DNA of 64,000 bases. It comes from Zestosphaera sp. GTDB taxonomy: Archaea > Thermoproteota > Thermoprotei_A > Sulfolobales > NBVN01. A program made the translations under genes and the position numbers. The stretch lies in contig JAWBSH010000003.1 of the NCBI GenBank assembly GCA_038843015.1, positions 133,343-197,342 of the forward strand, given 5' to 3'. Below are positions 2,149 through 18,165 of this stretch, piece after piece (the stretch's first letter is position 1; every line of letters starts with the position of its first letter). The notes under the pieces were generated by a model. It ran no database searches. It was not told where the DNA came from and worked only from the letters and a program-made list of their open reading frames with translations.

Positions 2149-3501
2149 TTATTTATCGCACACTATAGCCTCGTTTAAGAGTTCCCTGCGAAGCTCTAGC
2201 AACTTCTCGTAAAGTTTCTCCGAGTCTATTCTCAAAGGCTTTTTATTAGAGATTATCTTTTTCCCATCCACATATACATCGTTAACGCTTTCATCTCCTA
2301 TGTTATAGACTATGGTAGTGTAAGGGTCTTCTCTCAAACTCGCAATCCTGGTCTTAGGCGGTTTCAGGACCACTATGTCGGCCTTCATGCCAGGTTTTAA
2401 TGCTCCAACTAACTCTCCTATACCTAAGCTTTTGGCAGCTTTGCTAGTAATCATCTCAAGAACTTCTCTTGGTTGGAGCTTGCCAGGCGTTCTATAACGA
2501 CTTGACTGTGCAGCTATAGCTAGCTTTACTTGCTTGAAGAGACTTAAGTCTCCGTCTGTTACGGGCCCGTCCGTAGCTAGAGATACTGTAATACCTCTCT
2601 CTAAAAGCTCTCCTACCCTCGCTATGTCTTGACCCCAACTCATTATAGTGAACGGTGAGTACGCAACGTATATTTCGTGCTTAGACAACACCTTAATATC
2701 TTCGTCTGTAAGATACACTGCGTGAGCCAGTAAAGGTTTGGTTCGCAAGATACCCAGTTTTGCGGCTAGGTCCGTAGGCGTCACTCCATATTTACTCCTA
2801 ACGTAGTCAAGCTCGTGTAGAGACTCAGAGAAGTGCATATGGATTCTTATGCCGCTCTCCTCTGAGAATTCGACAGCCTTAAGTATAGTCTCGGTACTGC
2901 ACGAATACATTGCATGAACTCCTATCATAGTCTTCACTCTGCCGTTTGCGGTCCCGTTGAAGTTTAAAGCGAAGTTTATTGAGTCCTCGATAGTGTGTTT
3001 TGGTGCGTGCTCACTATACTCTACGACACCCTTAGCTAGAACACCCCTAACACCTAACTCCTCAACAGCTCTGACTACTTCTTCTTCATAGAAGTATTGG
3101 TCCGCGAAAGTAGTAATACCGTTTTCCAGCATCAGTAGTATTGAAGCCTTCGTAGACACGTAGATGTGTTCTGGTCTTAACAGACCCTCGACACACCAGA
3201 TTTTCCTCAACCAGTCAAATCCAGTCAAGCCAGCTCCTAAGCCCTGGAGAATTAGCATCGGTGCGTGCGTGTGAGTATTTATTAGTCCGGGCATCACTAT
3301 CGCGTTCTCATCTCCCTCAACGAGATCACACCTTACTGAATCTCTCTTATCCCATCTCGTCACTTCTTCAATCAATCCAGTAGCGTCATCAAACGCAACT
3401 AGCCCGTTACTTATTAGCCCGTATTCTCTACTCATAGATACTATGAGTCCTCTTAAGCACACGATCATTATTATGAACACCCAATATCTCATTAACAACA
3501 A
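2149..3501 (-). CDS. ATZ/TRZ-type amidohydrolase deaminase, MtaD-like (5'-methylthioadenosine/S-adenosylhomocysteine deaminase family)
   Basis: Metal and catalytic motifs are HTHAPM (HxH), HMHFSES (HxxE) and ATDG. The hydrophobic first 22 aa look like an ORF extension. The likely real start is the M at 3435 (MSREYGLISNG). Confidence 0.7.
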   Translation of the reverse strand: MLLMRYWVFIIMIVCLRGLIVSMSREYGLISNGLVAFDDATGLIEEVTRWDKRDSVRCDLVEGDENAIVMPGLINTHTHAPMLILQGLGAGLTGFDWLRKIWCVEGLLRPEHIYVSTKASILLMLENGITTFADQYFYEEEVVRAVEELGVRGVLAKGVVEYSEHAPKHTIEDSINFALNFNGTANGRVKTMIGVHAMYSCSTETILKAVEFSEESGIRIHMHFSESLHELDYVRSKYGVTPTDLAAKLGILRTKPLLAHAVYLTDEDIKVLSKHEIYVAYSPFTIMSWGQDIARVGELLERGITVSLATDGPVTDGDLSLFKQVKLAIAAQSSRYRTPGKLQPREVLEMITSKAAKSLGIGELVGALKPGMKADIVVLKPPKTRIASLREDPYTTIVYNIGDESVNDVYVDGKKIISNKKPLRIDSEKLYEKLLELRRELLNEAIVCDK

Positions 3502-11552: not shown

Positions 11553-13022
11553 TTATTTTCTTTTAAGAACAAACCCTATTAAGAACCCAACTAATAATAG
11601 CATTATACCTGCTACAGCGGTAGCTGTGTAGTCGACTACGAGAGTCTCTACTGGAGATGTCTCTGTAACTTTCACGGTAGTTGCTTCTCTTTCAGTAGTT
11701 TTATACGTAAGCACAGATGTAACGGTCTTAGTCTCAGTTTCTGGTGGCAACGTAACTGTTTGTGTTTGAATAGGTGCTGGCGTGATTGTCGTGTACGTAT
11801 ATGTTTCTGTTTGAGTCATTGTGGTGGTGATGGTGGTAGTAATGGTGATAGGCTGAGTCTCGGTAACCGTTACCGTTATTTGCGGGGGCGGGGTTTCTGT
11901 CTCTGTAGTTGTTTCGGTTGGTGTTTCTGTAGTCGTTTCTGTGGTTGTCTCTGTCGGTGTCGGCGTCTCTGCACCTAGCAAATATTCTTGGTGCGGCTTC
12001 ATGAGAGGATACTCATCAATATTATTAGAATCTATTACGTATGGGGTGTCACCAATCCCATTATTATCTAAGTCGCTCCCATTATAATTACTCCAGTAAT
12101 TACCCATATAACTCGTGAAGTACCTGTCTTCATACGCGAACGCGTACTTGTCGGGAGAATACCAGCGATTAGTACCGGGAGTCCCGTAGATGTCGTAATT
12201 ATTTGCATTACTGAAAGTATTCAAGTATATCATGTTATCAGAGAGGATCCCTCCTGAGGTTATGGAGAGGTATATCCCGTATGTGTTATTGACGATCGTG
12301 TTAAGGAATATTCTATTGTATCTTGCCGGGTTTGTCGTGCCGCGGATTCTAATGCCGTTACCATTATCGACTATTGTGTTGTTAGCTATGGTGTTATTGC
12401 TTGCTTCGTTAATGAATATTCCGTATGAGTTAATCCATCCATGTATCTTGTTATACGCGACTGTGACGTTTGACGACCTATACACTCTAATTCCGTAGTA
12501 GCCGGTTATTGAGGAGTTTGTCGTTGTTACTATGTTATAAGCGATCGTCACGTTCTGAGAGCCTGCGTAGACGTCTATGCCGTGCCAGTTACCCTCCTGA
12601 ATTATGATAAATCCTTTAACAACAACGTCATTGGCTTGGATTCTTAAGAGGAAGCCGCTCTTCTTGATGACCACGCTCTCGTCAGGTACTTCAGGTCTCC
12701 CAAGAGCTAGGAGTCTTAAGCCGTTTTTGTTTATGATAGTTCCGTTTACTTCAGTGTAGGTTCCTGGTCTAACGCAGATTGTCTGCCCGGGCTGTGCTGC
12801 CGTGACAGACATATTTATGCTTGGGTAATTATCTGGCACTATGATGTCGCATTCTGTCTCGTTAGGAGGCACATAACTCAAGAGGTTTAAGGACTGACTA
12901 GAGATGCGGGGCTTCCCCACAATGTTTTCGGGGATAGTAGCTGGCGTTGTAACGGATGTTAATACTAGAATAGCTAGCGTTAAAAGCAAAACGTATCTAA
13001 CGTCCATTAAGTACACCTTCAA
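11553..13022 (-). CDS. secreted/surface-anchored right-handed beta-helix (PbH1/NosD-like) protein with Thr-rich stalk and C-terminal TM anchor
   Basis: It has an N-terminal signal-like helix and repeated I/V-x-N-N-T-I and G-I-x-I units typical of parallel beta-helix repeats. Many N-x-S/T sequons are present. A TETTTETPTE stalk is followed by the AGIMLLLVGFLIGFVLKRK anchor. Confidence 0.65.
   Translation of the reverse strand: MKVYLMDVRYVLLLTLAILVLTSVTTPATIPENIVGKPRISSQSLNLLSYVPPNETECDIIVPDNYPSINMSVTAAQPGQTICVRPGTYTEVNGTIINKNGLRLLALGRPEVPDESVVIKKSGFLLRIQANDVVVKGFIIIQEGNWHGIDVYAGSQNVTIAYNIVTTTNSSITGYYGIRVYRSSNVTVAYNKIHGWINSYGIFINEASNNTIANNTIVDNGNGIRIRGTTNPARYNRIFLNTIVNNTYGIYLSITSGGILSDNMIYLNTFSNANNYDIYGTPGTNRWYSPDKYAFAYEDRYFTSYMGNYWSNYNGSDLDNNGIGDTPYVIDSNNIDEYPLMKPHQEYLLGAETPTPTETTTETTTETPTETTTETETPPPQITVTVTETQPITITTTITTTMTQTETYTYTTITPAPIQTQTVTLPPETETKTVTSVLTYKTTEREATTVKVTETSPVETLVVDYTATAVAGIMLLLVGFLIGFVLKRK
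11645..11972 (-). repeat. low-complexity Thr/Glu/Pro/Ile-rich coding repeat (stalk region of the beta-helix protein)
   Basis: The DNA shows degenerate GTTTCTGT/GGTTGT periodicity. The translation is TPTPTETTTETTTETPTETTTETETPPPQITVTVTETQPITITTTITTT. Confidence 0.7.
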
Positions 13023-14212: not shown

Positions 14213-14839
14213 TTACTTTTCTATAGGTCTGCCGTCAATGTCTAGCAATTGCTTCGGCGGGTCTTTCTTTTGTGTTAGTAGTGAGGTTATAACAAACACT
14301 GCTGCTCCTATAGGTATTACGAAGGGTCCTGGAGCGTATATAGCCAGCCATATGTCTTCAGTTTGCTGGTAGAAGTAGTATATGAAGGGTATCCAGAGAA
14401 CCACATTAGTTACTACACTAGCTATGGCACCCGTTCTGTTGGCTTTCTTCCAGTATATGCCGAAGATGAAAGGTATAGCCTGAACGAAGAGTATTAAGTA
14501 CCAGGCTATCTGTGTGAGGAAGTATATTGTGGCTGCCCATAAAGCAATGGCTAGCGAAACGAAAGCTGAGACTAGAACTAAGACTCTAGTTAGAAGGAGT
14601 TTTGTTTTTTCGCTCATGTTGGGGCGCACCATAGGTATTAAGTTATTCACGATTACTGAAGGAGGTATTATTAGTGAGCTGTCAGCACTACTCATTATGA
14701 GTGCTAGCAAGCCTACCGTGAATAACGCGAAGAGAGGAGCTGGTAACAGATTTAGTGCTAGGGTAGGTATGACTAGATTAGGGTCTTCTATCTCAGTTAT
14801 TATTAGTCTAGCCCAAATACCGATTAGAGGGCCTATCAT
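14213..14839 (-). pseudogene. C-terminal half of a sodium:solute symporter (SSF) gene; 5'-truncated remnant
   Basis: Only 208 aa (about 6 TM helices), including the SSF-type SSADSSLI segment, where full-length SSF proteins have about 13 TM helices. An in-frame stop lies 5 codons upstream of the listed M. The upstream DNA is occupied by a hisD fragment on the other strand. Confidence 0.6.
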
Positions 14840-14862: not shown

Positions 14863-15165
14863 GTGAGCAAAGCCCTCAACATATTAAGTAGGGTGAGAAA
14901 CGCTGGCTCGATATTCTTAGGTAACAATACTCCAGTAGCAATGGGTGACTACATAACAGGAGCTAATCACACACTACCTACAGGAGGTAACGCCGCTACA
15001 CGAGGTAGTCTAAGCGTTTTTGATTATATAAAAATAATAGACGTTCAGATAGTGAATGAGGAAGGCATTAAGAAGTTAGGTCCTCACGCTATCACGATAG
15101 CTAGTTCTGAGGGGCTCTACAATCACGCCGAATCTATCAAAGTGAGGTTGTCTAAGATTAGCTAG
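14863..15165 (+). pseudogene. hisD: C-terminal ~100 codons of histidinol dehydrogenase (hisD); 5'-truncated remnant
   Basis: NAGSIFLGNNTPVAMGDYITGANHTLPTGGNAATRGSLSVFDY matches the conserved HisD C-terminal region. About 330 N-terminal codons are absent. The frame is closed by a TAG at 14809. Confidence 0.65.
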
Positions 15166-16296: not shown

Positions 16297-16968
16297 CTAG
16301 TCTGCAACTCTATATATTAAGTGTATTTCATCTCCACACTCGCAGACCTTATGACTAACTAGTTTTAGTCTTAACCACTCACTAGAGTTGCCGAAGCCTT
16401 CTCCCCCAACTAGAGACACTGAATTCCTTCCTCCTATAACGTAGGGAGAGACAGTTATTCTAAACTCATCTACGAGTCTCTGTGAGGTCAGAGACCATAA
16501 TAGGGTGCCTCCCCCCTCAACAAGCAAGTCTCTCAAGTTTTTCTCGTACAGTATCTTCAGCGCTTTACTCATGTCTACTTGTGTTGACTCACTCTCTATG
16601 ATCACTATGTCTACTCCTAATCTCCTCAACTGATCTATTTTTCCTGTGTCGGCTGCGGAAGAAGTTACTATGATTGTCGGTGCTACACTCACATCAAGAA
16701 CTTTCGCGTTAAGAGGTATTTTCAGAGAACCGTCGACAACTACTCTCACAGGATTTCTTCCTTCAACGAGCCTGACAGTGAGTTGAGGGTTATCTCTGAT
16801 GACTGTGTTAGCGCCAACCATTACACCATCAACTATAGACCTCATAGAGTGTAGTCTTAACTTATCATAAGGACAACTAAGTCTTGAGTCACCGGTTTTC
16901 GAAGCTATCTTGCCATCAACCGACATAGTCGCGTAGACTCTCACGTAAGGTCTTCTCAAGCTCATCAC
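16297..16968 (-). CDS. 2,5-diamino-6-ribosylamino-4(3H)-pyrimidinone 5'-phosphate reductase (RibD C-terminal-domain family, archaeal riboflavin pathway)
   Basis: RPYVRVYATMSVDGKIA N-terminus, with LLVEGGGTL and ITVSPYVIGG motifs. Length is 223 aa. Confidence 0.75.
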   Translation of the reverse strand: MMSLRRPYVRVYATMSVDGKIASKTGDSRLSCPYDKLRLHSMRSIVDGVMVGANTVIRDNPQLTVRLVEGRNPVRVVVDGSLKIPLNAKVLDVSVAPTIIVTSSAADTGKIDQLRRLGVDIVIIESESTQVDMSKALKILYEKNLRDLLVEGGGTLLWSLTSQRLVDEFRITVSPYVIGGRNSVSLVGGEGFGNSSEWLRLKLVSHKVCECGDEIHLIYRVAD

Positions 16969-18076
16969 CTACGTACTTAAACCTACCACCAAGCATGAGA
17001 GCAGTAACTAACTCATATCCTCCCCTCTTAACTAAAGCTAGGTGCTTATTATGTGCTCTCTCGAGAGGGGTACCTGAATACTTCAGAAACAATACGTTAG
17101 CGGCACCCCCCTCAACCAAGTAGTTCTGCACGCCCACTGGATTAGTGTTGGTCAGGGCTTTGAGGACCCAGACTGGGTCATTAACTCCTACGTTACGTGC
17201 TAGAAGTAAGAGTAGCTCGCCCTCCCTCCACAAGTCGGGCTTAATCCAGCCTAAGTTGTCTGTGCCTAAAGCTACGTCTACTCCTAACTCATAAATACTC
17301 TTCAACTTAGGTAAGCCAGACATGAACCATAAGTTAGACCTAAGACATAAGACTAACGTAATTCTTAAGTCCTTAAGAAGCTGAAGTTCTTCAGGGTCTA
17401 GCCAGACTCCGTGGATTACTGCGTCAGGCCTGCCAGCACTCAGAAGCTTCTCTAAGTCTCTCTCTTCATGTGTGTCTTTAGTTTCTGAGACATGTGAGTG
17501 AATTAATTTGCCTGAACTTCTAGCTAATCTGAAAATAAATCTCAAATCTTCTAGAGTGAAGTAATGCGGTGATGAGATTCCGACACCGTCCGAGTACGTG
17601 ATTACCTCTCCTACCTCACGACTCACTTCCTCATGTCTTGAAGGCATACTAAGAACGTAGTGAGTCTTGATTTTAGTGTTGCCTAGCTTAAGGTTTTTTA
17701 CCCCCAACTCACGAAACTCAGCTATGTATCCTACGCCTGAACTCAACGTATATTCTATAGCCTCACTCACTACCGAGCTCAATAAGCTGGTTCCTGCTTT
17801 ACTGAGTACCAGGTATTTAAGCCCATAAGGCTCTCCGACAACAGAGTCTATATCTAGGTCCCAGCCAACCTCAGGGCTTACGTGATCTAATATGTGAGTG
17901 TGCATGTTTGCTAGAGGAGGCATGATTACGTGACCACGCATGTCGTAAGCTCCTCCAGCCCCACGAGATACGCTATGGATTCTGTCCCTCTCAATGACTA
18001 GCGTGAGAGGACCCTCAACAAACTCTAGTGAGGGCCCTAAGAATCCTCCAGCTACGGTAATACTGAGTTCTTTCAT
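16916..18076 (-). CDS. deaminase-type metal-dependent amidohydrolase (ATZ/TRZ / cytosine-guanine deaminase-like)
   Basis: ANMHTHILDH (HxH), HSHVSET (HxxE), HGVW and LGTDN motifs. The 3' end overlaps the downstream reductase gene by 53 nt. Confidence 0.65.
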   Translation of the reverse strand: MKELSITVAGGFLGPSLEFVEGPLTLVIERDRIHSVSRGAGGAYDMRGHVIMPPLANMHTHILDHVSPEVGWDLDIDSVVGEPYGLKYLVLSKAGTSLLSSVVSEAIEYTLSSGVGYIAEFRELGVKNLKLGNTKIKTHYVLSMPSRHEEVSREVGEVITYSDGVGISSPHYFTLEDLRFIFRLARSSGKLIHSHVSETKDTHEERDLEKLLSAGRPDAVIHGVWLDPEELQLLKDLRITLVLCLRSNLWFMSGLPKLKSIYELGVDVALGTDNLGWIKPDLWREGELLLLLARNVGVNDPVWVLKALTNTNPVGVQNYLVEGGAANVLFLKYSGTPLERAHNKHLALVKRGGYELVTALMLGGRFKYVGDELEKTLRESLRDYVG

Positions 18077-18165
18077 TTACTAGACCTAAGGATATTGCTT
18101 AACTCAGAGTTATAACTTGTTATACTAAACTTATATTGGTGATGACGCGGGACTGGATGATTTAG

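Follow-up and report, generated by a model that had tools for sequence, protein, structure and literature searches.

The window (the whole 64,000-nt stretch of DNA analysed) carries, overlapping the riboflavin reductase gene arfC, a gene for a metal-dependent amidohydrolase (hereafter AH) that we predict, with good confidence, to deaminate the pyrimidine intermediate of archaeal riboflavin synthesis. The assignment is based on the fold of AH, its catalytic residues, the linkage of its gene to riboflavin (rib) genes, its phyletic co-occurrence with ArfC and the fact that a canonical deaminase was not found in the genome. From these we infer the reaction that AH catalyses, the exact form of its substrate (its redox and phosphorylation state) and its coupling to the reductase. 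The family to which AH belongs appears to be the same as a candidate for this step already in the literature, 'PyrD'; because the same role has thus been proposed in print, we regard AH as a well-supported rediscovery.

An overlapping amidohydrolase–reductase gene pair

Both open reading frames were recovered as the first-pass annotation had described them, on the minus strand with AH upstream (Table 1). In the junction sequence the AH stop is a TGA at 16918–16916, and arfC may start at a GTG (16968) or an ATG (16965), giving an overlap of 53 nt, the figure originally reported, or of 50 nt. Because the TIGR01508 match on the arfC product already starts at residue 7, an overlap of at least about 35 nt is unavoidable whichever start is used. 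Desulfurococcaceae loci L006–L013 and L015 show the identical overlap. Upstream of AH, the short intergenic region shared with a divergent gene contains A/T-rich, TATA-like stretches 34–53 nt before the AH ATG, and on this reading of the sequence it is the presumed promoter region of the pair. The arrangement suggests that AH and arfC are co-transcribed and possibly translationally coupled.

Table 1. Features of the AH–arfC locus (positions are those of the window)
Feature	Position	Strand	Assignment	Basis
AH, 386-aa metal-dependent amidohydrolase gene of the cog0402 branch	16916..18076	-	Pyrimidine deaminase of riboflavin synthesis (predicted; 'PyrD'/MJ0699-type, from a divergent crenarchaeal subclade)	ORF list
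arfC, 223 aa, stand-alone RibD_C type	16297..16968	-	2,5-diamino-6-(ribosylamino)-4(3H)-pyrimidinone 5'-phosphate reductase	TIGR01508, RibD_C
Overlap of the AH 3' end with the arfC start	16916..16968	-		Sequence read at the junction
Intergenic region, 89 nt, between AH and a divergent 330-aa nucleotidyltransferase-domain gene	18077..18165	.	Presumed promoter region	

The arfC product had been read as an archaeal-type RibD_C reductase, and profile searches bear this out: it scores 224 bits against TIGR01508, above the equivalog cut-off of 186.45, and is the only match to that model in the genome. RibD_C (Pfam, 1.7e-56) is its sole domain, with no deaminase domain attached, and its best solved relative is the Methanocaldococcus jannaschii reductase (2AZN, 9.8e-48). 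The N-terminal stretch PYVRVYATMSVDGKIA, singled out earlier as resembling the characterised archaeal reductase, occupies residues 7–22.

Fold and active site of the amidohydrolase

The translation of AH contains every motif by which it was first placed in the deaminase branch of its superfamily, reading as an HxH...HxxE...H...D signature: ANMHTHILDH (H59, H61 and D64), HSHVSET (H195 and E198), HGVW (H222) and LGTDN (D273). All 40 family members compared retain the metal and catalytic residues H59, H61, H195, E198, H222 and D273 without change, so the signature is no chance motif match. The HxH ligands H59 and H61 (NMHTH) follow strand 1 and align with NTHTH of TM0936; the strand-5 histidine and catalytic glutamate, H195 and E198 (HVSET), align with HLYET of the same protein, and H222 and D273 (GTDN) are the strand-6 histidine and strand-8 aspartate.

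Pfam detects Amidohydro_1 (1.1e-14) in AH, with no match to PF00383 (dCMP_cyt_deam_1). The best NCBIfam match is NF005552 (PRK07213, 'chlorohydrolase') at 159.5 bits, which is below the curated cut-off of 294 bits for that model; the next family scores 51 bits. A profile of 27 AH relatives, compared with solved structures, matches cog0402 deaminases and hydrolases only, among them TM0936 (2.6e-25), MTA/SAH, guanine, 8-oxoguanine and isocytosine deaminases and AtzA. The AlphaFold (AF2) model of AH (pLDDT 91.8, pTM 0.92) is a (beta/alpha)8 barrel with a composite beta-sandwich domain, and Foldseek superimposes it on 4dzh, 1j6p, 4gbd, 8is4 and 2i9u (E 1e-21, TM 0.75–0.82) at 14–21% sequence identity. 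Some family members are longer (P0204, P0216 and P0225, 475–502 aa), their extra length consisting of insertions, not added domains. Public annotation of AH relatives reads 'amidohydrolase family protein', 'chlorohydrolase' or 'cytosine deaminase'.

AH thus shares its fold and its HxH, HxxE, H and D set with the TM0936/MtaD-type MTA/SAH deaminases and other cog0402 enzymes (AtzA/TrzN), but is 40–90 residues shorter, stands in a riboflavin context and not one of purine or SAM salvage, and has family-specific residues (D64, K87, R246, N274 and R351). These five are conserved across the AH family and differ in the paralogs of the same genome. Basic or polar in character, they may fit an anionic, polyhydroxylated substrate; to judge by sequence conservation, a ribityl chain with its phosphate would be a plausible partner for the three basic ones.

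Paralogs and phylogeny

Four further cog0402 paralogs (450–466 aa) are encoded in the genome; their best models are SsnA, 5'-deoxyadenosine deaminase and other TRZ/ATZ families, all scoring under the respective cut-offs. We placed these four in a maximum-likelihood (ML) tree of 44 sequences together with 40 rib-linked AH proteins, that of Methanotorris igneus included. A split with 100/100 support divides the paralogs from the 40 rib-linked proteins, and AH clusters with the M. igneus protein, a member of the NF005552 core, on the opposite side from the four paralogs. Inside the rib-linked set, AH falls in a Thermoproteota subclade (100/100) with motifs of its own (VGEPYGLKY and CLRSNLWF), separate from a core group formed by M. 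igneus, Bathyarchaeota and Nitrosopumilaceae-like sequences. This position in a divergent subclade outside the core group accounts for the sub-cut-off NF005552 score of AH: orthologs from Nitrosopumilaceae-like genomes and Bathyarchaeota reach 327–376 bits, and the M. igneus protein (WP_013798840.1) reaches 582.6 bits.

The riboflavin pathway in the genome

The assembly (1.55 Mb, 20 contigs, 95.9% complete) has as its closest named relatives Zestosphaera/'Zestomicrobium'-type Desulfurococcaceae MAGs. It encodes ArfA, adjoining RibH; a second gene of the DMRL-synthase family, RibC-like; RibB; an ArfB-like gene of the creatininase family; and ArfC. GTP cyclohydrolase II was not found in this 95.9%-complete genome. 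Nor does any gene in it match PF00383 (CDA-type) at E<=1, in agreement with the expectation that a CDA-type RibD-N/RIB2 homolog would be lacking; since the genome is a draft in 20 contigs, this gene counts as not found, and its absence as not proven. Apart from the deaminase (and a phosphatase), the archaeal riboflavin route is therefore complete here, and the formamide-hydrolase step already has a candidate of its own in the ArfB-like creatininase.

Linkage of the amidohydrolase to riboflavin genes

We surveyed the neighbourhoods of 79 named loci that encode AH relatives, counting rib genes within the fetched flanks, and found them near AH at 50 of the 79. The subfamily lies within rib operons in several archaeal classes, and gene order around it differs between lineages (Table 2). 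In the rib clusters examined, AH is the sole recurring gene from outside the recognised riboflavin set. Adjacency to arfC is not universal: the two genes lie apart in many genomes, for instance in Sulfolobaceae (arfC) and in the Thermoproteaceae-like f21 and f30. Loci L085–L089 and L046 do not belong to Methanobacteriota: they are Nitrosopumilaceae-like, fall within the window's own GTDB phylum and so do not extend the evidence to Euryarchaeota.

Table 2. Arrangement of AH and riboflavin genes by lineage
Lineage	Gene order
Desulfurococcaceae	AH-ArfC, overlapping
Several Sulfolobales MAGs	ArfA-RibH divergent from AH-ArfC
Acidianus hospitalis, Sulfolobus, Saccharolobus and strain HS-7 (Sulfolobaceae)	RibB-RibC-RibH-ArfA-AH
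Nitrososphaeria	ArfA-AH-ArfC
One Bathyarchaeota MAG	RibB-RibC-RibH-ArfA-AH-ArfC
Nezhaarchaeales	ArfC-AH
Five Nitrosopumilaceae-like genomes	RibE-RibB-RibH-ArfA-AH-ArfC, genes overlapping

Gene fusions, which the first-pass annotation had envisaged between this subfamily and ribD-C or other rib genes, gave a divided result. No clean AH–RibD_C fusion occurs among the AH relatives surveyed; one apparent case, P0102, in which the barrel is coupled to half of a RibD_C domain on a contig of 2.6 kb, was set aside as probably an artefact of gene calling or a frameshift. A fusion of an ArfB-like creatininase to AH does exist (P0319); its gene is complete, encodes 542 aa and lies within a metagenome contig of 104 kb. 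At a Conexivisphaera locus an ArfC–ArfB fusion adjoins AH. The ArfB–AH and ArfC–ArfB fusions tie the AH family to the riboflavin pathway, and they also argue that AH is no substitute for ArfB.

Co-occurrence with ArfC

Presence of AH and ArfC was compared across the order (41 genomes) and across the phylum (201 genomes, each at least 90% complete). The order sample contains both proteins in 30 genomes, neither in 8, AH only in 1 and ArfC only in 2; three members of the window's genus are among the genomes with neither. The sole AH-only genome is fragmented, and a profile search does recover AH in one of the two ArfC-only genomes. The phylum sample has both in 83 genomes, neither in 106, AH only in 2 and ArfC only in 10, the two AH-only matches being weak (91 and 108 bits) and in paralog-like open reading frames of 427–473 aa. 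Where both occur in the phylum sample, AH and arfC are adjacent in 39 genomes and at most about 3 kb apart in 43.

These counts overstate their statistical weight because related genomes are not independent. Joint absence recurs within families, consistent with loss of the two proteins together, and the co-occurrence suggested as a check on the candidate is borne out. From the ten ArfC-only phylum genomes it follows that some archaea have another deaminase or follow a different route.

Which hydrolase is it?

The nearest solved structures to AH are salvage deaminases and their relatives, and the public names of its homologues point the same way. AH could on these grounds be an ordinary cog0402 salvage deaminase, acting on MTA, SAH or 5'-deoxyadenosine, or on guanine, cytosine or isocytosine, with its adjacency to arfC devoid of functional meaning. 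We hold this to be most improbable, since the sequence identity to such enzymes is so low (14–21%) and four paralogs closer to them, forming a separate clade with 100/100 support, are already present in the genome. A salvage role is also hard to square with a rib linkage that is conserved across archaeal classes in varied gene orders, and with the loss of AH in company with arfC.

Gene context reveals that a protein takes part in a pathway, not at which step, and AH might accordingly serve another hydrolytic step of riboflavin synthesis: hydrolysis of the formamide after ArfA, or dephosphorylation of 5-amino-6-ribitylaminouracil 5'-phosphate. Deformylases and phosphoesterases are both found in the amidohydrolase superfamily. 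The archaeal phosphatase step, moreover, is likewise a gap (PMC8305020). We nevertheless judge either assignment highly unlikely. The genome encodes an ArfB-like creatininase besides AH, and the fusions described above show that ArfB and AH coexist. An invariant HxxE together with ligands for a single metal marks the deaminase branch, the structural neighbours are without exception deaminases or hydrolases of equivalent chemistry, and the deaminase step would otherwise be left with no candidate. The preferred reading, that AH is the pathway deaminase, agrees with the proposal made when the locus was first read, that a deaminase-type amidohydrolase coupled to the reductase is a natural candidate for this step; the failure to find a CDA-type gene, the linkage and the co-occurrence all support it.

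Proposed reaction

As the pathway deaminase, AH would replace the bacterial RibD N-terminal domain and fungal Rib2 by means of an unrelated amidohydrolase-barrel fold. H59, H61, H195 and D273 are predicted to hold one divalent metal ion, which would activate a water molecule, with E198 (of HxxE) and H222 as putative proton shuttles. The metal-activated water would attack C2 of the 4-oxopyrimidine ring and displace the 2-amino group, with release of ammonia. That guanine and isocytosine deaminases take off a 2-amino group of this kind, adjoining a 4-oxo group, is established chemistry. The most likely substrate would be the product of ArfC, 2,5-diamino-6-ribitylamino-4(3H)-pyrimidinone 5'-phosphate, and AH would convert it to 5-amino-6-ribitylaminouracil 5'-phosphate. 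Reduction would then precede deamination, an order that we take from published M. jannaschii work cited in PMC5397151; reduction followed by deamination in archaea and fungi goes back to Graupner et al. 2002, as cited in PMC5397151. Because AH and arfC are probably co-transcribed, deaminase and reductase would be made together.

Relation to known systems

According to Rodionova et al. (2017, PMC5397151), Archaea seem to lack orthologs of the RibD deaminase domain. The 'PyrD' candidate for the step was proposed in 2010 from riboflavin-gene clustering and co-occurrence and was still a prediction in 2017 (PMC5397151); Pfeiffer and Dyall-Smith (2021, PMC8305020), who list it as HVO_2483/MJ0699, called for experimental confirmation. 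The fold of 'PyrD' is not stated in PMC5397151 or PMC8305020. A 2026 review of the pathway carries no report of an archaeal deaminase (PMC13151069), and the literature that we searched yielded no assay of any enzyme of the AH family.

AH shares both rib clustering and co-occurrence with 'PyrD' (MJ0699 of M. jannaschii, HVO_2483 of Haloferax volcanii). Among our control genomes, M. jannaschii and M. acetivorans each have an NF005552 gene over the cut-off, weaker ones occur in H. volcanii (1e-30 or better) and S. acidocaldarius, and the model itself is centred on Methanocaldococcaceae. For these reasons NF005552/PRK07213 is likely the model for MJ0699 and HVO_2483, which the papers identify by locus tag. 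AH differs from the 'PyrD'/NF005552 type in its score (159.5 bits against 294), in its divergent Thermoproteota subclade and in the motifs of that subclade. With the RibD N-terminal domain and Rib2 the likeness is one of proposed reaction and pathway position, extending for Rib2 to deamination after reduction, whereas their CDA fold and zinc site are unrelated to those of AH; the relationship would be one of non-orthologous displacement.

Beyond the assignment itself, the overlapping genes might encode a physical deaminase–reductase complex that channels the labile diaminopyrimidine, and the Thermoproteota subclade might differ from the rest of the family in the form of its substrate, ideas that we consider rather unlikely. 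If they were true, such a complex would amount to a bifunctional RibD re-created with a non-homologous, amidohydrolase-fold deaminase, and the subclade would part from the methanogen-type core in the phosphorylation or redox state of its substrate. The locus opens no new question, since its candidate could have been tested from 2010/2017 onwards. Its interest lies in the step concerned: in the archaeal synthesis of riboflavin (and of the F420 precursor), deamination is among the last reactions whose enzyme awaits biochemical proof. To the published prediction the locus adds a member of the family from a thermophile lineage with a very tight link to arfC, and the survey adds the ArfB–amidohydrolase fusion and the pattern of co-loss.

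Fusions involving the amidohydrolase or neighbouring riboflavin genes

P0319, a 542-aa relative of the amidohydrolase, is a natural fusion that carries a creatininase (ArfB-like) domain and the rib-linked amidohydrolase in one protein, and this fusion was found on three contigs. At a Conexivisphaera locus, ArfA and the amidohydrolase are followed immediately by an ORF whose domain content makes it a fusion of ArfC with ArfB.

Features of the fusion loci and of the window
Feature	Position	Strand	Detail
Creatininase–amidohydrolase fusion P0319	L096:5001-6629		JGI metagenome 3300009107, 104-kb contig
ArfC–ArfB fusion, 515-aa ORF	L074:4519-6066		Conexivisphaera sp. MAG; RibD_C then creatininase domain
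cog0402 paralog, 450 aa	window about 2152-3501 (G000:C3:135494-136843)	-	
Predicted secreted protein, 489 aa	window 11553-13022	-	
Symporter (sodium:solute) fragment, 208-aa ORF	window 14213-14839	-	C-terminal part only, 262-404 of 406
Histidinol dehydrogenase fragment, 100-aa ORF	window 14863-15165	+	profile 318-411 of 411

Other genes of the window

The window also hosts one of the genome's four larger cog0402 paralogs, whose top match is the 'N-ethylammeline chlorohydrolase' model, with a score below the cut-off. The predicted secreted protein combines N-rich repetitive segments and a long Thr/Glu/Pro-rich linker with a hydrophobic anchor at its C terminus. Further along, the symporter fragment adjoins the histidinol dehydrogenase ORF, which covers only the final quarter of its profile and is the sole hisD match in the whole genome. 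Both ORFs look like gene remnants, which hints that histidine synthesis has been lost.

Genomes lacking the amidohydrolase

Both the amidohydrolase and arfC are absent from three genomes of the window's genus (G004, G005 and G006; 98, 84 and 81% complete, respectively), and riboflavin prototrophy seems to be variable inside the genus. Within the phylum sample, five genomes with a good ArfC match (155–203 bits; G257, G310, G348, G350 and G366) have no member of the amidohydrolase family; an alternative deaminase, or a different route, may be in use there.
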